DNA from: an uncultured Phycisphaerales bacterium
GTDB lineage: Bacteria; Planctomycetota; Phycisphaerae; Tepidisphaerales; Tepidisphaeraceae
Length of the DNA stretch: 64,000 nucleotides
Assembly (NCBI GenBank): GCA_963758525.1
Contig: CAVWVQ010000003.1
Coordinates: 4,352,001 to 4,416,000, forward strand
Direction of reading: 5' to 3'
The notes under the pieces are model-generated. The model had not been told where the DNA came from. It worked only from the letters and a program-made list of their open reading frames with translations, and did not search any database. The number at the start of each line of letters is the position of its first letter. Within the stretch, counting starts at the first letter, position 1. This document shows positions 7,800 to 61,454 of the stretch, piece after piece. The translations under genes and the position numbers were made by a program.

Positions 7800-7942
7800 G
7801 GGTGTGGCGCTCGAAAGTGGCGATCGGCTCCGAGTAGGGCGGGATTCATCCCGCCGATTTGTTGGCCGGCTGAGAAAACGGCGGGATGAATCCCGCCCTA
7901 CGATCGCAAAATCTGCAATCGCCACAAATAAAAGTTACACCC
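7800..7942. mobile_element. 143-bp MITE, copy 1, containing a GTAG REP doublet
   Basis: Ends GGGTGTGGC...GTTACACCC (imperfect terminal inverted repeat); flanked by the 8-bp direct repeat ACATCGTG (7792-7799, 7943-7950); near-identical to 54397-54539. Confidence 0.9.
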
Positions 7943-18990: not shown

Positions 18991-19169
18991 AAACGGCGAG
19001 CATGCTCGCCGGCTACACGAAGAGATGCGCAGATGCGAAAAAACCCGGAATCCGGTCCCGTCGTTCCTCTTTTCCCCGTGTAGCCGGTGGGCATGCCCAC
19101 CGGTTTCCCCCTTCCGACCTGTCGTCTCCGCCCCTGAAAATTCACGGCGAGCATGCCTGTCGGCTACAC
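18991..19169. repeat. Three GTAG-type REP palindromes upstream of RAYT
   Basis: GTGTAGCCGGTGGGCATGCCCACCGG-like units at 18991-19018 (-), 19078-19104 (+) and 19144-19169 (-, degenerate). Confidence 0.9.
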
Positions 19170-19179
19170 TGAAGAGAGA

Positions 19180-19776
19180 ATGGTCCGCTGGTATCACGCG
19201 ATCTTCAGCGCTTACGGATTCTGGCTTCCGAACGATCCGCGGGGGTCGTGGTCGGACTTTGTGGGGTCGTGGGAGCTGTTGAAATTTGGGTGCGCAACCA
19301 CGACGGGCGAGAAGCGGTCGCTCGCGGCGGTAGCGCATGACGCGGATGTGCGCCGGAGGGCGAAATTAGCGCTGAAATATCCGCCGGTGCGGTTCAACGA
19401 CGCCCAGCGTCTCGCGATCGGAGCAGGCATCACCCAGGCCTGCGCCGAATCGAAGATCATTCTTCACGCCTGTGCGATTGGCTTCGATCACGTTCACATC
19501 GTCGCCGCCCGACATACGAAACGCGTGGAGCAGATCGTCGGACAATTGAAGGGCCGATCCACGCAGCACATGGGGGCGGCTGGATGTCATCCGATGCAGG
19601 CGGCGCTCCCGTCGACACGACCGCTGCCTACACCGTGGTCCGAGGGGTGCTGGTCCGTCTTTATCAATGACCACGAGCAACTCAGATGTGCGATCAAATA
19701 CGTCGAGCGCCATCCGCAAAAGGAAGGCCTCCCAGCGCAACGATGGACCTTCGTCCGTTCCGTCTCCTACGTGTAG
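19180..19776 (+). CDS. REP-associated tyrosine transposase (RAYT, HUH/Y1 IS200-like superfamily)
   Basis: YHAIFSAYGFWLPNDPRGS N-terminus, HUH motif DHVHIV, W..G.W segment and catalytic Tyr in IKYVERHP; flanked by REPs on both sides. Confidence 0.88.
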   Translation: MVRWYHAIFSAYGFWLPNDPRGSWSDFVGSWELLKFGCATTTGEKRSLAAVAHDADVRRRAKLALKYPPVRFNDAQRLAIGAGITQACAESKIILHACAIGFDHVHIVAARHTKRVEQIVGQLKGRSTQHMGAAGCHPMQAALPSTRPLPTPWSEGCWSVFINDHEQLRCAIKYVERHPQKEGLPAQRWTFVRSVSYV

Positions 19777-19911
19777 CCGGTGGGCATGCCCACCGTTTTC
19801 TTTGGGTGTGGAAGACGTCGGACGGGGGGAAACGGCGAGCATGCTCGCCGGCTACACAAAAATACTTGCTGATTTCCCACTCTTCGTTTAGCCGGCGGGC
19901 ATGCCCGCCGT
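19771..19911. repeat. Three REP palindromes downstream of RAYT
   Basis: Units at 19771-19797 (+), 19830-19857 (-) and 19888-19911 (+, TTAG foot). The RAYT stop codon is the TAG of the first unit's GTAG. Confidence 0.9.
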
Positions 19912-19945
19912 GGTCCTTCGCGTTGAAAATCTTTTCACCGCCGTA

Positions 19946-19994: not shown

Positions 19995-20975
19995 ATGAGC
20001 CATGCGATTTGTTTCCTGTCACGACGGCAAGCTTCAGGTGTTAAGTCCGCAGGAGTTCCGCGCCCGACCGCCCAGGCTTTCACCACCGGCTTGGCACCGC
20101 TGGACGCACTGGCGCCAGGAGGGGCGTTTGCCCGGGGAGCGGTGCATGAAATTCTCACCGCCCCCGAGCATGGCGCCGCCCTTTTTTTTGCGACGCTCCT
20201 GGCCGGAGCGTCGGCAGCGCCGCCGGGAGGCACGGGGGATGGGGAAGGCACGAAGGCAGTCGCCGCGGCGACTAAACTGCGGCACCAAGGCACAGGGGGA
20301 AGGATGGAGGAGGGATTCAGAGAGGGTTCAGGGTTCAGGGTTCAGACTTCAGCACAAAAATCCCCTTCCTCCCCTTCGTGCCGCAGTTTAGTCGCCGCGG
20401 CGACTGCCTCTGTGCCTTCGTGCCTTCCCCCTGATCCCCCTTCGTGCCTTGGTGCCTCCGTGCCTTCGTGCCGGCGATTCATCTGCTGGTGCGATCCCAC
20501 GCGGGAAATTTATCCGCCGGCGTTGGCGAGTCATGGCATCGCATTGACGCATTTATTTCTTCTGCATCCGAACGGCCCGCGCGATCTGCTCTGGGCGATT
20601 TCTGAATCTTTGCGATGCAAGGGGGTCGCCGCCGTCGTGGCCGCTCCGCCACGTCTCTCGCGCGTCATGGCGCGCCGTCTTCAGCTTTCCGCCGAGCGCG
20701 GCGGCGGCGTCGGATTGCTGCTGCGCAGCACCAACGCGCCGGGAATTGATTGCTATGCCGCCGCCACCCGCTGGCTGGTGCGCCCCCAGGCTGGGGAGCG
20801 CACCGTGCAACGATGGAACGTTCAACTGATTCACGGTCATGGAGGATGTATCGGACAGACCGTCATCCTGGAGGTAAGCCGTGAAAACCATTCTGTGCGT
20901 GCACTTGAATCGCTGGCCAATCGACCGATGGAGAAGAGCACAGGACAAACTTCGGGCGTTGCCAAGGCCTCGTGA
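19995..20975 (+). CDS. imuA: ImuA (RecA/SulA-like) with in-frame repeat insertion
   Basis: TGLAPLDAL.PGG.F.RGAVHEI, WCDP..EIYPPAL, ESLRC, RRLQLSAERGG and AATRWLV motifs; upstream of imuB and dnaE2. Confidence 0.9.
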   Translation: MSHAICFLSRRQASGVKSAGVPRPTAQAFTTGLAPLDALAPGGAFARGAVHEILTAPEHGAALFFATLLAGASAAPPGGTGDGEGTKAVAAATKLRHQGTGGRMEEGFREGSGFRVQTSAQKSPSSPSCRSLVAAATASVPSCLPPDPPSCLGASVPSCRRFICWCDPTREIYPPALASHGIALTHLFLLHPNGPRDLLWAISESLRCKGVAAVVAAPPRLSRVMARRLQLSAERGGGVGLLLRSTNAPGIDCYAAATRWLVRPQAGERTVQRWNVQLIHGHGGCIGQTVILEVSRENHSVRALESLANRPMEKSTGQTSGVAKAS

Positions 20976-22873
20976 TTGCCAAGCCGTTCCTCCTCAAAAA
21001 CAAATTCAAAACTTCCGGAACGCCACCCCCTCTCCCGGTACTCCGGGAGAGGGCAGGGGTGAGGGTGATTTCGAGCACCAACGGCACTTGACGTTCCAAA
21101 TCACCCTCACCCCAACCCTCTCCCGGAGTACCAGGAGAGGGGACAATCAAGCAGCCTCTCTCCTCAATACACATTCTTCCCAAGTTCCCCTGGTCATCGT
21201 TCGCACCGTCGCCGATCGGCAGGTGATTGTTTCTCTGTGCGACCTGGCCGCCCAGCGGGGAATTCGCCGGGGGATGACGCTCACGCAGGCCCGGGCGCTG
21301 TGCGCCGATGTCGAGCATGCCGAACACGACCCGCCGGCTGACCGTCGGGCGCTGGAGGCGCTGGGTCGCTGGCTCACGCGTTTTACGCCGACTGTGGCGC
21401 TGGACGCCAGTGAATCCGCCGACGGCATTTTCCTCGACATCACCGGCTGCGACCGGCTGTTTGGAAGCGTTGAAAATATTGTCCATCAGGTGATCGACGC
21501 CTTGGCTCGCCTGCGCATCAGCGCCCGCGTCGCAGTTGCTCCCACGCCTGGGGCGGCCTGGGCCTTGGCTGTCGCGGGGGAAAACGGCGATATCGCGTCC
21601 ATCGACACGCTGGCGGATATGCTTGCGCCGCTTCCTCCTGCCGCATTGCGCATCAGCGACGATCTTGCCGCGGCATTGCATCACCTGGGGCTGGTCCGCA
21701 TCCATCAGGTGATCGACCTTCCCCGCGGCCTGCTCCCGGTACGTTTCGGTCCCGAATTGCTTTTGCGCATTGATCAGGCACTGGGCCGAATCTCCGAGCC
21801 GCTGGTTCCGCTCCAATATCTTCCCCCCATCATTGCGCGTATGGATTTTGACGGCCGAGTCTCTTCGCTCGAAGCCATCTGGGCAGTCTTTCAGCAATTG
21901 ATCGGGCAGATCATCGCGCAGCTGACGCATCGCGGCTGCGGCGCTCGCCGGCTCGATATCGAGTTGCTCCATCTCCACGAGCCACCGGTCCGCAAAAGCA
22001 TTTTTCTCTCCCGTCCCTCGCGCGATGCGGTGAATTTGTTTAATTTATTTCGGTGTGGGATGGAGGAGGGGAGGGAAGGGACAAAGGGACAGAGGGACAA
22101 AGGGACAAAGGGAAGACAAGAAGGCACGAAGGCAGTCGTGGCGACTGCCTCCGTGCCTTCGTGCCTCTCTTCCCCTCCCCCTTTGTCCCTTTCCCCTTCC
22201 CTCTCCGACGACGGTTACAGCGGCATGATCCTCCATGTCCCCTTATTTGAGCCAATTTCCGATCAGCAACTCGGCCTTCTCGGCCAGGAAGAATATGACG
22301 GGCAACTCGAGCTCGATCGTCTCATCGAACGGCTGCGGATTCGCCTGGGAGAACAGACCGTCATGAGCACCCAATTAACCGAATCCTACATCCCCGAGCG
22401 CGCCTGGAGCGCCTGCGCGAGAAAGCAGGGCAGTAAAGCAGTTGAAAGGAAAGAAGAATTCCCACTCTAAAGCATCCCCTTCCTCCCCTTCGTGCCGCAG
22501 TTTAGTCGCCGCGGCGACTGCCTTCGTGCCTTGGTGCCTTCCCCCTGATTCCCCTTCGTCCCTTGGTCCCTTTGTCCCTTTGTCCCTTCCTCCTCCCATC
22601 CGTCCCCTTCACTTATTCCTTCATCCCATCGAAATCCGCGTGATGGTCAGCCCGTCGGATGATGCCGAAGGGCAGCCCGCCGCGTTTACGCATGAGGGGC
22701 AGGTCCGCACGATCGTTCACGCCGTCGGCCCCGAGCGTATTGCCGGGCGGTGGTGGGACGGCCACGACAAAACCCGCGATTACTTCGACGTGGAGGACGC
22801 CAGTGCCAGAAGGTTCTGGCTCTTCCGCGTGCGGGAAACCGGGCGGTGGTATTTGCATGGAGGGTTTGAGTGA
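20881..22873 (+). CDS. imuB: ImuB (Y-family polymerase-like) with three repeat insertions; apparent frameshift near 22410
   Basis: WPIDR, GMTLTQARAL, RFTPTV, LDITGCDRLFG and APTPGAAWALA; C-terminal GPERIAGRWW, RDYFDVED and WYLHGGFE lie in ORF 22442..22873. Confidence 0.9.
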
Positions 22874-22874
22874 A

Positions 22875-23155
22875 GAAGCCCGGGGAGAAGTCAGGAGCAA
22901 GAAGCCAGAAGTAAGAAGCAGGAATTGCAAATTGAGGATTGCAAATTGCAAAATTGAAGGGCGGCAATTTGAGATTTGAGATATTTGAGATTTGAAATAT
23001 TTGAGTCCTGGTGACCCAAAGGAGTAAGAACCATAAGGAGACAAAAAAGCCCCGTCCCCCAAAATTTGCATTTTGCAATCCTCAATTTGCATTTTGCAAT
23101 TCCCTCTTCTGACTCCTGGCTTCTGGCTCCTGGCTTCTGACTCCCTACTTCTCCA
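22875..23155. repeat. Compound inverted-repeat hairpin between imuB and dnaE2
   Basis: AGAAGCC-like and TTGCAAA-like heptamers on the left are mirrored by TTTGCAA/GGCTTCT units on the right; GAGATTT units lie in the loop. Confidence 0.9.
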
Positions 23156-23159
23156 AAAA

Positions 23160-26100
23160 ATGCCCGAAGCTCCCAACCCCAAACTTCGCGAAGCTCCGCC
23201 GCCAGCATTGAAATCGGTGGCTCCCTCCTCCTGCGCCTATGCGGAGCTGGACGTCAAAACCAACTTCTCTTTTCTCCGCGGCGCTTCGCATGCCGACGAA
23301 CTGGTCTATCGTGCCGCGGAGCTGGGATATCGCGCGATCGGCATCACCGACATCAACTCTCTCGCCGGTGTCGTTCGTGCCCATGACGCGGCCAAGGAAG
23401 TCGGCCTGAAGCTTCTCGTCGGCTCCCGCCTCACGTTTTCCGACGCTCCCGACCTGCTCGTCTGGGCCAGCAATCGCGCGGGATACGCCAGGCTTTGCAG
23501 AATGCTAACCCTGGGAAAACGCCGGACCGAAAAAGGAGAATGCGATTTAAGGCTGGAGGATTTTTTGAATGATAATGAGGGGTTGGTGGCGGCCGTGGAG
23601 GGGGATCAAAGAGAGGCACGAAGGGAAGGAAGGAAGCAGGAGTCAGGAGCCAGAAGCCAGAAGTCAGAAGAGGAAACCGAAGATTGCAAATTGAGGATTG
23701 CAAATTGCAAATTGCAAATTGAAGAACACCTCCTCTCCCCTTCCTCCCCCTTCGTGCCGCAGCAAGGTCCCGCGCGCGCGGGATGCCTTCGTGCCTCCGT
23801 GCCTGCATTAATTTCCCTCCGCTCCTCCCTCGGCTCGCGTCTCTCGCTGATTGCCGCCTGCTCTTATGGCTCGGACGATTCCTCACATCTGCGCCGGTTG
23901 GCGGAGCTGTCGCGCCAATGCCATATTCCTCTTCTGGCGACCAATGCGGTTCACTATCACGACCCGTCCCGCCGGCGGCTGCAGGACGTGCTCACGTGCG
24001 TTCGCCATGGCTGCACCATCGACGAAGCGGGCTTTCGTCTGTTTCCAAACGGCGAACGCTATCTCAAATCGCCGCTGCAGATGCATCGGCTCTTTGCCGA
24101 CTATCCGCAGGCGCTGCGGCGGGGGATCGAGATTGCCGAGCAATGCGACTTTCAACTCGATTCGCTACGCTATGAATATCCCGACGAACTGGTTCCGGCC
24201 GGGAAATCTCCCATCGAACATCTGGGCAATCTCGCCTGGGCCGGGGCGGCTGAGCACTATCCAGCCGGCATTCCTCAAAAAGTGCGCGATCTGCTCAACC
24301 ACGAGCTGACGCTGATCGCACAACTCAAATTCGAAGCCTATTTTCTCACCGTCCATGATCTGGTGTGCTACGCGCGATCGCGCGGCATCCTCTGTCAGGG
24401 GCGCGGATCGGCCGCCAATTCCGCGGTCTGTTTCTGCATCGGGGTCACGTCGGTCAACCCTGTCGAAGTCGATTTGCTTTTCGAGCGGTTTATCAGTGCC
24501 GCCCGCAATGAGCCGCCGGACATTGACATCGATTTCGAACACGAGCGCCGCGAGGAGGTGATTCAATACATCTACGAAAAGTATGGCCGCGAGCGCGCCG
24601 GGATGACCGCCGAGGTAATCACCTATCGCGGTCGCTCCGCGGTCCGCGACGTGGGCAAAGCGATGGGCCTCACGCTTGACATGGTCGACACGATGGCCTC
24701 GAAGCTCGACTGGTGGCATCGCGGCGTGCTGAGCGAGCCGCAACTGCAGGAGTGCGGCCTGGACCCCGCGGATCGGACGATTCGTCGAGTCATTGCGCTT
24801 GCCACCGAGTTGCTGGGTTTTCCCCGCCACTTGAGCCAGCACGTCGGAGGGATGGTGATGACGCGCGGACCGTTGTGCGAACTGGTGCCGATTGAAAATG
24901 CGAGCATGCCGGATCGAACTGTCATTGAGTGGGATAAGAATGACATTGACTCGCTGGGGATTTTGAAAGTTGATGTGCTGGCGTTGGGAATGCTGACGTG
25001 TATTTCGAAGGCGCTTAAGTTGATCAGTTGGACAAATGTCAGAGACGAAGGGACAAAGGGACAAAGGGACGAAGGGGCGGAGGGGGGAAGGGACGAAGGG
25101 ACAGAGGGACGAAGGGACAAAGGGGCGGAGGGGGGAAGGGACGAAGGGACAGAGGGACGAAGAGACAAAGGGGAATGTGGGGAGGGGGATAAAGAGGCGA
25201 TATCTGATGCACAAAGTCAATACGTTTCGGGATCTGGTTGCTTGGCAACGAGGGATGGAACTGGCGCAAACGACGTATTCAGTGATCCTGAGGATGCCAC
25301 AAGCGGAGAGGTTTCGTCTTTTCAACCAGATGTGGCGGGCCGCGTACTCGATCCCGTCCAACATCGCGGAGGGATACGCCCGACAATCCCGCCCGGATTA
25401 TTTGAAGTTTCTGCGGATTGCTCGCGGTTCACTGGCAGAGCTGTCTACTCAAGTCGAATTAGCAATCAATCTTCGAATTATTACTCCGTGTGCACAACTG
25501 CAGAACCTGGAGAATCTGCTGATGGAGGAGGATCGAATTCTACAGGCGCTGATTATGAGCCTCCAACGCAAAACGCGACAGGAAGAGCAAATGAGGGGAG
25601 GGGCAAAGGGACAAAGGGACTAAGGGACGGAGGGACAGAGGGTAAGGCAAATCCCTCCGCCCCTTTGTCCCTGTGTCCCTCTGTCCCTTCGTCCCTCCCT
25701 TCCTCTGCCCCTTCGTCCCTTCTCCCTCCCTTGTCCCTCTCCTCCTTCCGTCCCACCGATCCCGCTGTCTACCAAATGATGTCGAATGCCGACACGGTCG
25801 GCGTTTTCCAGATTGAGAGCCGGGCGCAGATGTCCATGCTGCCGCGGCTGCGACCCAACTGCTTTTACGATCTCGTGATCGAAGTCGCGATCGTGCGCCC
25901 AGGCCCAATTCAGGGAAACATGGTTCACCCCTATTTGCGACGCCGTTGCGGCGAAGAAAAAGTCACATTCCCCAATGAAAAACTGCGCGAAGTGTTGAGC
26001 AAAACCCTCGGGGTTCCGCTTTTTCAGGAACAGGCGATGCGCATTGCAATGGTCGCGGCGGGTTTTACCGCCGACGAGGCGGACAAGTTGCCGCGCCATG

Positions 26101-27468
26101 GCAGCATGGCGTCGGACCAGCGCGCTGGAGGCATTTCATCAGAAAATCGTCCAAGGCATGCTTGCCAATGGGTACGAACAGGAATTCGCCGAACAGTGTT
26201 TCGATCAGATCAAGGGGTTCGGCGAATATGGATTTCCCGAGAGTCACGCCGCGTCGTTTGCGCTGCTGGTGTATGTCTCAGCCTGGATCAAACGTTACCA
26301 TCCCGCGGCCTTCGCGGCGGCGCTGATCAACAGCCAGCCGATGGGTTTTTATATGCCTGCACAAATCGTGCGCGATGCCAAAGAGCATGGGGTGGAAGTG
26401 CTTCCCGTGGATGTGAACCGGAGCCAATGGGATTGCACATTGGAGGGGGGAAGGGACGAAGGGACAGAGGGACATAGGGACGAAGGGACGAAGGGACAAA
26501 GGGACAAAGAGGTAGAGGGACAAAGGGACGAAGGGACAGAGGGACATAGGGACAAATGTGCAGAGGGAACAGATGGAGGGATGAAAGGACAAAGTGCGAA
26601 GATGACATGGGGGGCCGGGGGACCAGTATTGCGATTGGGGTTCCGTCTCATCAAGGGATTTCGCGAAACGCATGCACAACAGATTGCCGAAGCCCGTGCA
26701 AAATGGAAATGTTTTATTTCCATCGCGCAATTGCATCGGACGACGCGGCTGCCTGTCGCATCGTTGCGCATTCTTGCTGAAGCCGATGCGTTTGGATCAT
26801 TGGGAATCACCCGCCGTGAGGCGTTGTGGGAGGTGCTGGAGTTGAAGGATGAGGAGGCAGGGTTGTTTGAAGGGGGGGAGGGAGAAGGGACAAAGGGACA
26901 GAGGGACAAAGGGACAAAGTGCAAAGACGCCATTCCCGCTGCCCCTTTGTCCCTTCGTCCCTTCGTCCCTTCGTCCCTTCTCCCTCCCCTGCCCGCTGCC
27001 CCTTTGTCCCTTTGTCCCTCAGTCCCTTCGTCCCTTCTCCCTCCCATGCCCCTCGGCCAGGAAGTCATGACCGATTACGCGACGGCCGGCCTTTCGCTCA
27101 AGCAACATCCTGTTGCGCTGTTGCGCGATGAACTGCAGCGCAGAAAGATCATTCGTTCCATAGACCTGGATCCGTTACGCAATGGGCGATGGGTTAGCGT
27201 CGCGGGATTGGTGCTGATCCGGCAGCGGCCTGGGACGGCATCAGGCATCGTCTTCGAAACCCTTGAAGACGAAACCGGCATCGTGAATCTGATTGTGAAG
27301 CCGGATATTTACGAGCGCTACCGCCGCGCCGCCCGGCATGCGGGACTGCTCCAGGCCGAGGGATATCTGCAGAAACAGGGACAGGTCGTTCACGTGGTCG
27401 CCAAACGGCTCTTCGACTTGAGCGATTTGCTGCAAGGCCACGAATTTCAGTCGCGGGATTTTCATTAG
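23160..27468 (+). CDS. dnaE2: Error-prone DNA polymerase DnaE2 (ImuC) with four insertions; apparent 2-nt frameshift near 26091
   Basis: TNFSFLRGASH PHP domain, QGRGSAANS, PPDIDIDFEHERREE, PRHLSQHVGG, KVDVLALGML, GVFQIESRAQ, YGFPESHAASFA, RQRPGTA and C-terminal SRDFH. Confidence 0.95.
25207..25623 (+). CDS. Four-helix-bundle protein (23S rRNA IVS protein/TIGR02436-like), nested in dnaE2 in the +1 frame
   Basis: FRDLVAWQRGMEL, ERFRLFNQMWRAAYSIPSNIAEGYARQS and YLKFLRIARGSLAELSTQ match the family signature; SD-like AAAGAGG at 25191-25197. Confidence 0.92.
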   Translation: MHKVNTFRDLVAWQRGMELAQTTYSVILRMPQAERFRLFNQMWRAAYSIPSNIAEGYARQSRPDYLKFLRIARGSLAELSTQVELAINLRIITPCAQLQNLENLLMEEDRILQALIMSLQRKTRQEEQMRGGAKGQRD

Positions 27469-54396: not shown

Positions 54397-54539
54397 GGGT
54401 GTGGCGCTCGAAAGTGGCGATCGGCTCCGAGTAGGGCGGGATTCATCCCGCCGATTTGTTGGCCGGCCGAGAAAACGGCGGGATGAATCCCGCCCTACGA
54501 TCGCAAAATCTGCAATCGCCACAAATAAAAGTTACACCC
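54397..54539. mobile_element. 143-bp MITE, copy 2
   Basis: Near-identical to 7800-7942; flanked by GAGGACCA/GACGACCA (7 of 8 match). Confidence 0.88.
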
Positions 54540-58040: not shown

Positions 58041-61000
58041 ATGAGTTCAACCCTTCCCGACGCCATCGGGCGGCTGCTCGCTGCGCGCCCGCTCCAGGAT
58101 CTCGCCAAATCGCTGGCCGAAACGACCGCGCTGTCGGCCAGCGGTTTGTGGGGCAGCAGCGTCGCGGCAGTTGTCGCGGCAGTCGAAAAGACGCTCCAGC
58201 GTCCGGTGCTGGTGGTATGCGGGCATCTCGACGAAGCCGACGACCTCTCCGACGACATCGAGTTATTCTCGGGAAAACGCCCTGAGGTGCTCCCCGCACT
58301 GGAGATGGGCGGCAGCCTGGGGCATATGAGCGAGGAGCTGGTCTCCAACCGGCTCGGATTGCTGTCGCGAATGAGCGTCGACGGCGGAATGCCTCGGTTT
58401 CTCATCGCATCGATCCAGGCGCTGATGCAGCCGGTCCCATCTCGCAGGCAACTGGACGAACTGCTCTTCACCGTGAAGTCCGGCCAGAAGCTCGAACCCG
58501 AGAAGCTGATCGTCTGGCTCTCCGATCACGGATACAACCGCCTCGAGCAGGTTGAAGTCCCCGGAGATTTCGCCGTCCGCGGCGGCATTATCGACGTTTA
58601 CATCCCGGGCGAATTTGAAGTCTCCGGCGAAGAGGTCGGACTCGCGGCCCGCATCGATTTCTTTGACGATCAGATCGAGTCGATCAAGCGCTTTGATCTC
58701 GACACGATGGGATCACTCCAGACGCTGGAATCGGTGCGCCTTGTCGATCTCAAAGGCGCTCTGCCCGACAGTGGCGAATCGACGAGCCTCTTCCGCTATC
58801 TCCCCGCCGACACGATTGTCGCGCTCTGGGCCCCGCTGGAAATTGCCGAGCAGGGGAAGAGCTATCTCGACCGGCTCAACGACGTAAAAGGGATGTATCC
58901 GCTGAGCGCCCTGCTTCAGCAGGCGCAAGGCTTCGCCCGCCTGGAGCTGAGCCAATTCGATCAGGGAACCTCCGCCGGCCCGAGCCTGGTCGGCGGCAAG
59001 GCCGTTCCGCACGTGAAGCTTCCGGTGCGATCGCTGCAGCGGTTCGAGACGGAAGCAAAGAAAGCCATCGGCGAGCTTGCGGAGCTGGCGGAGACGTCAA
59101 AAGTCACGATCTTTTGCGAGAACGCCGGGGAGATGCAGCGATTCAGCGAGCTGGTGGAGACGGAACGGCCGGGGCTAGCCCAGCGAATCGACGTGCGGCT
59201 CGGCTATTTGCATCGCGGGTTTATTTGGGAAGAAGGGGAGGAAGAAAGGCACGAAGGCACGGAGGCAGTCGCCGCCGTGCCTTCGTGCCTTTCTTCTGTC
59301 GCTCTCCTCGGCCATCACGAACTTTTCCACCGCTATGAGCAGCGACGGCATGTCAGGAAGGTGATCGCCTCGCGGCCGGTCGATTCATTTCTCGATCTCA
59401 AATCGGGCGATTACGTGGTGCATGTGGCCCACGGCATCGCCCGGTTCACCGGAATGCAGACGATCTCGAAGGACGGGCACAGCGAAGAATATCTCACCCT
59501 GCGATTTGCCGAGAACGCGACGCTGCACGTGCCGGCCGCGCGAATCAACCTGATTCAAAAATACGTCGGCAGCTTCCAGGGCCATCCGACGCTTTCGCGC
59601 CTCGGCAGCGGATCATGGGAAAAGCAGAAGGCTAAAGTCGCCGAAGCGGTCATGGACATGGCCGCCGAGCTGCTCGAAATCCAGGCGGCCCGAGCGGCGG
59701 AGCCGGGGATGGCGTATCCGCCGGACACGGACTGGCAGCGCGAATTCGAAGCGGAGTTTCCCTATGAGCCGACGGGCGACCAGGTGATCGCCGCGGAAGA
59801 AATCAAACAGGACATGCAGAAGGCCCGGCCGATGGACCGGCTTCTCTGCGGCGATGTCGGCTACGGCAAAACCGAAATGGCGATGCGCGCGGCGTTCAAA
59901 ACGATCGAGTTTGGCAAGCAGGTTGCCGTGCTCGTCCCCACCACGATTCTGGCCGAGCAGCATTACCGCTCGTTTCGCGAGCGGATGGTCAACTATCCGT
60001 TCGCCGTCGAATCCATCAGCCGGTACAAATCCGCCGCCGAGCAGAAGGAGACCGTCAAACGACTGGCCAAGGGCGAAATTGACATTCTCATCGGCACGCA
60101 CCGCCTGATCAGCAAGGATGTGAAATTCGCCGATCTCGGGCTGGTCGTCATCGACGAGGAACAGCGCTTCGGCGTGACCCACAAGGAGCGATTGAAGCAG
60201 ATGCGCAAGACCGTCGACGTGCTGACGATGTCGGCAACGCCGATTCCCCGCACGCTCCATATGAGCATGCTCGGCCTGCGCGACATCAGCTCCCTCACGA
60301 CCGCGCCGCAAGACCGGCGAAGCATCGTCACCGAGGTGATCGCATACGACAAGCAGCGCATTCAGCAGGCGGTGTTGCGCGAGCTCAACCGGGAGGGGCA
60401 GGTCTATTTTGTTCACAACCGCGTGAACAATATTCTCGAGCAGGCCGATGAGATTCAGCGGATGGTCCCTGACGCGCGGATCATCGTCGGCCACGGTCAG
60501 ATGGCCCAGGGAGAGCTGGAAGAGGTGATGCTGAAATTCGTGCGCCACGAAGCGGACATCCTCGTCTGCACGACCATCATCGAAAGCGGCCTGGACATTC
60601 CCAACGTGAACACAATCCTCATCAACGCGGCAGACCGCTTCGGGCTCAGCGAACTGCATCAGCTCCGCGGACGCGTGGGACGCTACAAGCACCGGGCGTA
60701 TTGCTATTTGTTGCTGCCATCCGATCGGCCGATCACAGACATCGCGGCAAAGCGCCTCAAGGCAATCGAGGAATACAGCCATCTGGGCGCCGGCTTCAAG
60801 ATCGCCATGCGCGATCTGGAAATCCGCGGCGCCGGCAACATCCTCGGGCCCGAGCAGTCGGGCCATATCGCGACGGTGGGTTATGAAATGTATTGCCAGC
60901 TTCTGGAAGAGGCGACTCGCCAGCTCAAGAACGAGCCGAAGAAATCGACGCCCGAGGCGCACGTCGATATCGGCGTCACCGCGTTTCTGCCCAAGACCTA

Positions 61001-61454
61001 CATCCCCGGCGATCGACCCAGAATGGACCTATATCGCCGGCTGACGCGATGCACCGACATGCACATGCTGGCGATGCTGGAGCAGGACATGAAAGACGCC
61101 TTCGGCGATCCGCCACGCCAGGCGCTGGTGTTTCTCGCGCTGACGGAACTGCGCCTGTTGGCCCAGATTTATGGCATCAGCAGCATCATCCGCAAAGAGC
61201 CCGACGTGGTCCTGACCGTGCAGGACGCGAAGAAGGCGCAAGCAGCCCTGACAGGCGCTCCCGGCACCCTCCGCGTGATCGATGACAAAACCGTCTATCT
61301 AAGAATGCCGGCAACTTTTCTTGAGTCTGAAACGTTGTTGATGGTGCTGCGCAATCTGCTGCGCGGGGCGTACGATCGGGACGCGAATGTGACCCCATCC
61401 CCGCAAACCGCAGCACCGCCGAAAGCGATGGCGGCCGTAAAAGTTTCCAACTGA
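58041..61454 (+). CDS. mfd: Transcription-repair coupling factor with small in-frame hairpin insertion
   Basis: VRGGIIDV, VVHVAHGIARF, GDVGYGKTE, DEEQRFG, SATPIPRTL, QLRGRVGR and DLEIRGAGN motifs. Confidence 0.98.
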   Translation: MSSTLPDAIGRLLAARPLQDLAKSLAETTALSASGLWGSSVAAVVAAVEKTLQRPVLVVCGHLDEADDLSDDIELFSGKRPEVLPALEMGGSLGHMSEELVSNRLGLLSRMSVDGGMPRFLIASIQALMQPVPSRRQLDELLFTVKSGQKLEPEKLIVWLSDHGYNRLEQVEVPGDFAVRGGIIDVYIPGEFEVSGEEVGLAARIDFFDDQIESIKRFDLDTMGSLQTLESVRLVDLKGALPDSGESTSLFRYLPADTIVALWAPLEIAEQGKSYLDRLNDVKGMYPLSALLQQAQGFARLELSQFDQGTSAGPSLVGGKAVPHVKLPVRSLQRFETEAKKAIGELAELAETSKVTIFCENAGEMQRFSELVETERPGLAQRIDVRLGYLHRGFIWEEGEEERHEGTEAVAAVPSCLSSVALLGHHELFHRYEQRRHVRKVIASRPVDSFLDLKSGDYVVHVAHGIARFTGMQTISKDGHSEEYLTLRFAENATLHVPAARINLIQKYVGSFQGHPTLSRLGSGSWEKQKAKVAEAVMDMAAELLEIQAARAAEPGMAYPPDTDWQREFEAEFPYEPTGDQVIAAEEIKQDMQKARPMDRLLCGDVGYGKTEMAMRAAFKTIEFGKQVAVLVPTTILAEQHYRSFRERMVNYPFAVESISRYKSAAEQKETVKRLAKGEIDILIGTHRLISKDVKFADLGLVVIDEEQRFGVTHKERLKQMRKTVDVLTMSATPIPRTLHMSMLGLRDISSLTTAPQDRRSIVTEVIAYDKQRIQQAVLRELNREGQVYFVHNRVNNILEQADEIQRMVPDARIIVGHGQMAQGELEEVMLKFVRHEADILVCTTIIESGLDIPNVNTILINAADRFGLSELHQLRGRVGRYKHRAYCYLLLPSDRPITDIAAKRLKAIEEYSHLGAGFKIAMRDLEIRGAGNILGPEQSGHIATVGYEMYCQLLEEATRQLKNEPKKSTPEAHVDIGVTAFLPKTYIPGDRPRMDLYRRLTRCTDMHMLAMLEQDMKDAFGDPPRQALVFLALTELRLLAQIYGISSIIRKEPDVVLTVQDAKKAQAALTGAPGTLRVIDDKTVYLRMPATFLESETLLMVLRNLLRGAYDRDANVTPSPQTAAPPKAMAAVKVSN

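Follow-up and report, generated by a model that had tools for sequence, protein, structure and literature searches.

Which process polarises the silent positions of host genes beside short tandem repeats? The question is raised by a 64,000-nucleotide (nt) stretch of the genome of an uncultured Phycisphaerales bacterium (contig CAVWVQ010000003.1, positions 4,352,001 to 4,416,000; hereafter the window), where the imuA-imuB-dnaE2 genes, which the finding spans, and mfd carry inserts of tandem 7-8-nt units. An earlier note, made from the sequence of the window alone, had described the host codons flanking hairpin inserts as poor in C upstream and poor in G downstream. We show here that this polarity, over about 70 bp, is real, lies in conserved host codons and is found genome-wide, and that it belongs to each oriented array of 7/8-mers and not to the hairpin.

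The genome around the window is 6.47 Mb long with 61% GC, and its Rho protein falls into the same 90% cluster as sequences from Tepidisphaeraceae and Phycisphaerales. A periodicity scan of the whole genome returned 616 period-7/8 tandem arrays of about ten unit families, the commonest units being AAGGCACG (123 arrays) and AACCCTG (99). With their head-to-tail units of 7-8 nt in many dispersed copies, they are repeats of the STRR-like (short tandemly repeated repetitive) or GGGAATC type. The first-coming arm of a pair is named L, and its strand is taken as the array strand. The labels of the unit families (F1-F11) and the names given below to Xanthomonas genes were assigned here, from motifs and translations. 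Genes were called with our own dicodon model, in which single calls may be wrong; the orthologue checks control for that. F4 and the self-complementary F8 were excluded from the analyses of orphan arrays, of strand, unit and context, and of 10-bp bins, and F8 also from the count of same-amino-acid codons.

A ramp of GC skew beside the arrays

At fourfold-degenerate sites, the GC skew read on the inward strand was +0.64 [0.52, 0.75] at 0-20 bp from the 543 element sides, then +0.40 at 20-40 bp, +0.27 at 40-60 bp, +0.02 at 60-80 bp and -0.08 at 150-300 bp. In 10-bp bins (582 edges) the skew dropped steadily from +0.76 at the 5' edge of the array to about 0 at 70 bp, while fourfold T stayed at 0.07-0.09 along the ramp. 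The check proposed in the earlier note, skew against distance, thus gave what it had anticipated, a loss of C on the 5' side and of G on the 3' side, decaying to about 0 by 60-80 bp. The excess of T-ending codons that it had also described holds for C/T twofold sites only, where C/(C+T) is about 0.45 near arrays as compared with 0.65 in the background; at fourfold sites it is G that replaces C.

The contribution of gene ends to this footprint is bounded: at the 3' ends of genes without arrays, C goes down somewhat over the last 45 bp (0.28-0.35) but G does not go up (0.39-0.42), and G beside arrays lies above these values (0.50-0.58). The footprint was present at 165 isolated sides, exceeded controls matched for distance to the stop codon, and persisted at a distance of over 90 bp from gene ends (C 0.23, n = 346 sites). 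Array length hardly mattered (C 0.27, 0.26 and 0.23 by length class). C was depleted in every dinucleotide context (odds ratios of 0.35-0.77), with a G gain that was highest after G and lowest after T. Codon position 2 was likewise skewed within 20-30 bp of arrays.

The footprint belongs to the oriented array

The earlier note had put the hairpin at the centre of the footprint. This view had to be abandoned when orphan arrays, which have neither a partner nor any complementary stretch within 800 bp (n = 122), were considered. Their 5' skew (+0.61 at 0-30 bp and +0.37 at 30-60 bp) was the same as that of paired arms (+0.56 and +0.26); partnerless arrays carry the footprint and the hairpin is thus not needed. 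On the same strand, orphans also showed a weak 3' tail, going from +0.20 to +0.10 over 300 bp (baseline near +0.06), and an additive logistic model gave G:C log-odds of +1.43 and +0.70 on the 5' side and of +0.32 to +0.11 on the 3' side. At long range, the surroundings of orphans in this genome are slightly skewed (+0.05 to +0.07). A hairpin is therefore two facing arrays, hence poor in C upstream and in G downstream, and its overshoot (-0.09 at 100-300 bp) results from the weak 3' tail of the arrays. An early split of the genome's own inserts into upstream and downstream sides had shown no downstream effect (C 0.39, G 0.40) because left-only inserts had been pooled, which led to the orphan test.

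The ramp was nearly identical whether the array strand was the coding strand (+0.58 and +0.33) or the template strand (+0.53 and +0.28). For orphans in these two situations, C was 0.22 and 0.20 on the 5' side, and 0.27 and 0.31 on the 3' side. The F9, F5 and F6 units, which have no G-tracts on the array strand, still show the ramp: clusters containing only these units (93 sides, mostly the A/C-rich F9) gave +0.52 and +0.36. Among 218 hairpins, 210 have a loop shorter than 200 bp and no open reading frame (ORF), yet the footprint is present; a four-helix-bundle cargo such as that of the largest dnaE2 insert (see below) is thus not required. The arms of convergent pairs keep one order (29/29, 27/27, 7/7 and 6/6 by family), the exception being AAGACGCG (17 vs 6).

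As for the distribution of orphan arrays, they favour the + strand from 2.0 Mb onward (38 L vs 15 R) and not before (19 vs 25). The replication skew on contig C3 is very weak.

The footprint is a derived state

We compared codons for the same amino acid in 98 genes aligned with relatives, a set that excludes G004 (unpublished), G011 (which has a long-range skew of its own) and three genomes of other families. At the 148 fourfold same-amino-acid sites within 60 bp of an array, C was 0.16 and G 0.66, as compared with 0.35 and 0.45 in the orthologues; sites beyond 1 kb gave 0.41 and 0.42. C was less frequent than in the orthologues at 22 of the 31 element sides, more frequent at 6 and tied at 3 (p = 0.004). 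Orthologues that lack the insert were at background at the insert loops (C 0.44-0.45, G 0.39; 96 cases), meaning that the footprint is derived. What remains of the earlier note is thus a strand-symmetric, derived footprint, centred on the elements and decaying with distance. In relatives with arrays of their own at these loops (32 cases), C was 0.37 and G 0.43 upstream, and C was 0.27 and G 0.51 downstream.

Unrelated unit families have used the same insert sites, which are thus hot spots: in dnaE2, mfd, valS, pheS, radA, nadA and murJ, the same protein loops take independent 7/8-mer inserts across genera. A link between the footprint and the imuABC cassette was dropped, as C was still 0.11, against 0.31 in orthologues, when the window was excluded.

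G011 shows multi-kilobase domains rich in G or in C, which switch sharply, even in mid-gene, with up to 32 C for 1 G at third positions. These domains were seen at loci L051, L052, L029, L053 (contig C175) and L054, other contigs being flat, and two C-rich ones start at a ~200-bp element. They are a larger-scale phenomenon than the 70-bp ramp.

The imuA-imuB-dnaE2 genes and mfd in the window

The features of the window are as follows.

19995..20975, +: imuA-like gene (NF033429, E = 1.3e-20, below the curated cut-off)
~20220-20470: nested array hairpin in the imuA-like gene, with arrays at 20323-20343 and 20411-20466
20881..22873, +: imuB, IMS family (PF00817), both halves of which align to single orthologue ORFs
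22006..22060, +: C-poor 5' footprint zone covering conserved codons of imuB (VNLFNLFRCG)
22060..22205: in-frame array hairpin of GAAGGGAC/AAGGCACG, left arm 22076-22107, right arm 22152-22167
22206..22270, -: right-arm footprint zone in conserved imuB codons, G-poor on the + strand
22475..22600, -: right-type arrays (22525-22588) in a variable imuB loop
22600..22660, -: footprint zone in conserved RPLHLFLHP codons, G-poor on the + strand
22886..23142, unstranded: intergenic, with three heptamer families (AGCCAGA, TTGCAAA, ATTTGAG) in a nested mirror
23160..27468, +: dnaE2 with four array inserts in loops also used by relatives (Pfam; alignment with 9 orthologues)
23540..23600, +: 5' footprint zone in dnaE2, C-ending same-amino-acid codons 1/16 vs 6.0 in orthologues
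23600..23805, unstranded: in-frame composite insert, with AAGGCACG, AGCCAGA and TTGCAAA left arrays and a short right arm
24925..25040, +: 5' footprint zone in dnaE2, C-ending same-amino-acid codons 2/33 vs 10.9 in orthologues
25040..25740, unstranded: largest insert, with GAAGGGAC left arrays at 25048-25159 and 25606-25637 and a right arm at 25674-25697
25207..25623, +: four-helix-bundle ORF within the largest insert, its frame being +1 with respect to dnaE2 (TIGR02436, E = 5.4e-31)
26443..26590, +: left-type GAAGGGAC array insert (26451-26554) lacking its own right arm
26815..26875, +: 5' footprint zone (ALWEVLEL), C-poor
26875..27050, unstranded: in-frame array hairpin, left arm 26885-26916, right arm 26948-27036
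59180..59245, +: 5' zone in mfd, weak relative to orthologues, among which several are themselves interrupted by an insert there
59246..59291, unstranded: AAGGCACG hairpin in frame within mfd (58041-61454)
59292..59360, -: right-arm footprint zone in mfd, G-ending codons 2/15 vs 5.5 in orthologues

Compared with orthologues, the strongest cases are 24925-25035 and 23540-23600. All the upstream stretches initially pointed out are indeed C-poor: 1 C in 41 nt at 22030-22070, 5 in 61 at 23540-23600, 13 in 111 at 24925-25035, 3 in 51 at 26820-26870 and none in 24 at 59217-59240. Downstream, 22230-22260 (3 G in 31 nt) and 22600-22630 (1 G in 31 nt) are G-poor; 23810-23860, of which 23810-23850 had been given as C/T-rich, is weak relative to orthologues and not G-poor. 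These stretches are mostly conserved host coding sequence, as had been supposed, except that the last ~10 nt of 22030-22070 are insert tail, and the mfd upstream example is weak, with 3 C-ending codons at 59150-59245 vs 4.1 in orthologues.

Two frames are broken by comparison with single-ORF orthologues, that of imuB near 22470 (22440-22480), within its second insert, and that of dnaE2 near 26090 (26085-26100); each break is either a real pseudogene or an assembly error. The ORF at 25207-25623, which matches TIGR02436 with 107 bits (cut-off 24), sits between inverted arms, and the dnaE2 frame stays open across it. Three of the 6 matches to the TIGR02436 hidden Markov model (HMM) in the genome are flanked by arrays on both sides. 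The relative G015 has an insert of similar look in the same dnaE2 loop, with a different repeat unit. Another ORF, in an F9 loop (C3:3373129-3373516), also looks by eye like a four-helix bundle and was missed by the HMM.

Direction of change in Xanthomonas

The relatives of the window's genome are too distant (70-80% amino-acid identity) for changes to be polarised, and we thus used Xanthomonas. Eight loci were taken, each with the best 30 of 37-40 matching species (80-100% DNA identity). The presence of an array was decided by pattern, 8 assignments being overridden by eye; at four loci all species were counted as array-bearing. Changes were counted by parsimony at 0-70 bp and compared with those beyond 150 bp; since sites within a locus are non-independent, the p-values overstate significance. 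Near arrays, C>G was increased (x1.57, p = 0.01) and G>C decreased (x0.71, p = 0.046); fourfold A>G rose by x2.4 (p = 0.001), twofold G>A fell to x0.53, and C>A was x1.6 (not significant). C>T remained flat (x0.91 and x0.94), as did the total substitution rate (1.80 vs 1.91). When pooled, G gains were 69 for 40.0 expected (x1.7) and G losses 102 for 140.8 (x0.7). Relative to per-locus backgrounds, G gains were up in 5 of the 7 informative loci and G losses down in 3 of them, radA having no site in the zone. C gains were halved on internal branches (26 vs 52.5) and normal on terminal ones (69 vs 68.0). Twofold C/(C+T) was low near arrays at most loci. Altogether, these rates lean towards a bias in which changes persist, with a mutational excess of G as the alternative.

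At the HAD locus, C in the last 66 nt was 0.26 in the 23 array bearers and 0.46 in the 7 array-free species, the difference vanishing further in. The footprint is absent from three array bearers that are nested among array-free species (20-22 C per 66 nt, compared with 11-18 in the other 20).

At one site (L508-L627), the array variants, their units and the junction codons differ among Xanthomonas species, which suggests repeated rewriting.

Recurrence in other bacteria

The ramp recurs in Planctomycetota relatives, Xanthomonadales and Gemmatimonadota, and more weakly in cyanobacteria. In family relatives, 111 AAGGCACG arrays gave +0.55 to +0.61 and +0.26 to +0.30. For the GC-rich part of at least 125 loci with the GGGAATC pattern (92 arrays), the figures, given without gene-end control, were +0.49 to +0.51 and +0.34, falling to about 0 beyond 60 bp; at the GC-rich loci among the matches listed, these arrays showed no weak 3' tail. 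The 80 titled records among the GGGAATC matches listed comprised many Xanthomonadales and Gemmatimonadota and few Acidobacteriota. The cyanobacterial sample, 400 kb of Moorena bouillonii and 27 short loci (107 arrays), gave a weaker ramp, +0.33 [0.00, 0.71] and +0.28 [0.00, 0.51]. At its coding-strand sites the values were +0.44 and +0.32 with intervals above 0, template-strand sites being too few, and array-free gene ends were near +0.03 and -0.14.

What could polarise the flanks

Since the effect follows the array strand and ignores transcription and unit sequence, we place it at the DNA level: the process acting on arrays is polar, probably operates on DNA and has a fixed reach. The explanation that we tentatively prefer is a strand-specific bias in which silent changes persist, G being kept and C purged; that it acts without raising the total substitution rate is partly shown, in Xanthomonas only. 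The array would be nicked, broken or rewritten repeatedly, exposing its strand as a 3'-ended single strand. The ~70 bases 5' of the array would then form a 3' tail, and a C-poor tail would do better, either by folding back less onto the array or by being better repaired or converted. Were the array strand to be exposed as a single strand whose 3' end lies in the array, the constant order of the arms would be explained as well. Breaks or nicks and the 3' tail are putative here, and are drawn from the geometry of the ramp.

A C weight of x0.5 alone reproduces the fourfold composition (A.11, C.26, G.52, T.11; observed.12,.25,.54 and.09) as well as the twofold one (0.48). The pairing of flanks with arrays was estimated from duplex energies, with RNA parameters only, against recoded flanks: with F1, F2, F3 and F7 arrays the flanks pair 1.5-2.4 kcal/mol less than recoded ones do, on both strands. 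F9 flanks showed reduced pairing on the pyrimidine strand (+0.75 kcal/mol, p = 0.008).

Several results weigh against a bias in persistence acting on a 3' tail. Neither a break, nor a nick, nor an enzyme was observed. The window's genome is fitted equally well by a doubling of all C>N mutations, and because the equilibrium is identical the composition of this genome cannot choose between a bias in persistence and a rise in C>N. Pairing of F9 flanks with the array strand was not reduced (-0.68 kcal/mol, p = 0.06), so that avoidance of fold-back is possible but not general. The higher G gain after G than after T is unlike the TGG preference of RecA. In Xanthomonas, the deficit in G losses rests on purL (0.32), x500 (0.59) and recR (0.27, where all rates are low), the four remaining informative loci ranging from 1.09 to 1.44; G gains are equal on terminal (1.69) and internal (1.70) branches, as a mutational bias predicts; and dnaJ and recR have no footprint despite their arrays. 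Finally, the GCGAAGAC family of the window's genome has none either (C 0.44-0.50, n = 79 sites).

A broader proposal, which we regard as rather unlikely, is that arrays across bacteria mark an undescribed telomere-like end-processing, 3' ends being made, extended and rejoined repeatedly. If true, it would explain the fixed arm order, the nested mirrored arrays, the unit swaps, the reuse of loops and the drive of G over C on a ~70-base tail.

Error-prone repair, already evoked in the earlier note, survives as the main rival, provided that it is G-biased. Tracts of repair or rewriting, synthesised by an error-prone polymerase, would start from the array and extend up to ~70 nt on its 5' side, G replacing C and A on the array strand. 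Such directional mutagenesis comes close to the preferred explanation, although it is less probable: it needs no benefit, is blind to transcription and unit sequence, and tracts of variable length fit the shape of the ramp. The excesses of C>G, A>G and, not significantly, C>A in Xanthomonas speak for it, and so do the G gains seen at most informative loci and on both kinds of branches. However, it has to face a total rate that is not raised, the halving of C gains on internal branches, and a C>T rate that is not raised either although, both in the window's genome and at most Xanthomonas loci, arrays are accompanied by a low twofold C/(C+T).

Selection at the mRNA level against mispairing, with C avoided upstream of a purine-rich array and G downstream of a pyrimidine-rich one so that arrays or start regions fold properly, seems unlikely to us. 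The reduced pairing of flanks with F1, F2, F3 and F7 arrays, and with F9 on the pyrimidine strand, and the reduction of back-changes on internal branches are in its favour, but the asymmetry tracks the array strand and not the direction of the mRNA, coding and template ramps are nearly equal, and F9 pairing on the array strand is not reduced.

Arrays might also land, or survive, only behind stretches that are already G-rich. All single arrays seen in G011 do match the polarity of their local kilobase skew domain, and orphans in the window's genome lie in the slight long-range skew mentioned above. Yet the flanks of the 96 insert-free orthologues are at background, the three nested array bearers of the HAD locus have no footprint, and in Xanthomonas the zone is maintained and does not decay, all of which makes such a target preference improbable.

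Deamination of cytosines on single-stranded DNA beside a break, in the manner of kataegis, had been put forward in the earlier note, and the polarity matches the expectation for 3' tails at a resected break. C/T twofold sites do lose C. At fourfold sites, however, G replaces C without a rise of T (0.05-0.09 near vs 0.08-0.09 far), which argues against deamination; in addition, C>T is not raised in Xanthomonas (x0.91-0.94), there is no motif preference, and models with C>T only fitted in 0 of 4000 parameter sets at x2 and in none of up to 1500 each at x3, x5 and x10. We thus consider deamination very improbable.

Extension of the stem, by selection (as the earlier note had suggested) or by template switching, and decayed insert tails taken for host sequence can hardly be entertained and are refuted beyond ~20-30 bp: the slight excess of complementarity within 30 bp (mean rank 0.58), the purine-rich tails abutting arrays and the skew at codon position 2 are confined to that distance, whereas at 30-120 bp the complementarity of the flanks does not exceed that of mismatched pairs (mean rank 0.52 and 0.45; 142 hairpins), the 122 orphans show the full 5' footprint with no partner arm, and the effect is found in same-amino-acid codons (C 0.16 vs 0.35) and beyond 90 bp from gene ends.

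Taken together, the property is real, derived and cross-phylum, and its mechanism is narrowed, not settled.

Relation to known systems

The STRR of cyanobacteria are bacterial heptamer tandem repeats. Bacterial heptamer repeats have been described as GGGAATC in Xanthomonas and GGGGA(C/T)T in Nostoc (PMC4692102), and a TAACTGA heptamer repeat is also known (PMC4679880). The discussion of PMC4692102 leaves their function open, and the word 'skew' is absent from the available text of that paper; full-text literature searches, covering few subscription papers, returned no report of flank skew at such arrays. The arrays are thus known and the ~70-bp footprint is apparently undescribed. GGGAATC arrays themselves show the ramp; the present genome differs by having about ten families, some without G-tracts, and in-frame inserts at shared loops.

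Kataegis resembles the footprint in having a centre with a loss of C on its 5' side and of G on its 3' side, but here the zone is 70 bp and not kilobases, G replaces C, no motif is preferred and, in Xanthomonas, the rate is not raised. RecA prefers TGG and Chi-associated DNA is TG-rich, according to the accessible part of PMC3763553; the likeness lies in a polar motif and in a strand, the presumed 3' tail, that is rich in G and poor in C, and the difference in a 70-bp zone where T is not enriched, a G gain that is weakest after T, and a motif that is a tandem array. Interrupted palindromes are processed via breaks and hairpins by SbcCD and RecA (PMC3315005), a possible source of exposed ends, but partnerless arrays suffice here and the accessible part of that paper mentions no flank bias. 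TIGR02436 cassettes between inverted arms provide another likeness, the largest dnaE2 insert being such a cassette.

Rho utilisation sites are stretches with more C than G, and thus share with the footprint the G-versus-C axis and a similar length. Avoidance of Rho is nevertheless disfavoured: coding and template strands are equal, the footprint being independent of the direction of transcription, and a ramp, although weaker, exists in Moorena, where Rho (PF07497) was matched in 0 of 7 genomes of the genus vs 9 of 14 controls.

The footprint constrains what acts on heptamer repeats and could help to test their role. It gives experiments a measurable readout and offers a way to find or date decayed arrays. 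At silent sites, the local force of G versus C lowers the odds of C by a factor of two to four, with consequences for analyses of codon bias and synonymous divergence near repeats.

Other repeats in the genome

An identity of the arrays with repetitive extragenic palindromic (REP) sequences and their REP-associated tyrosine transposases (RAYT) was rejected, as the arrays are made of tandem units and not of short palindromic REP units. REP-like hairpins form separate families, at least 8 genome-wide (318 elements, including those at 7800-7942 and 54397-54539 of the window). Their effect is weaker than that of arrays and partly explained by gene ends, although in some families the G excess within 60 bp exceeds the gene-end control. 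The ORF at 19153-19776, an IS200/RAYT-like Y1 by a weak match (30.4 bits for a cut-off of 80), adjoins REP-like copies and not arrays. Three such copies surround it (window 19077-19915), and the genome contains 10 similar ORFs.

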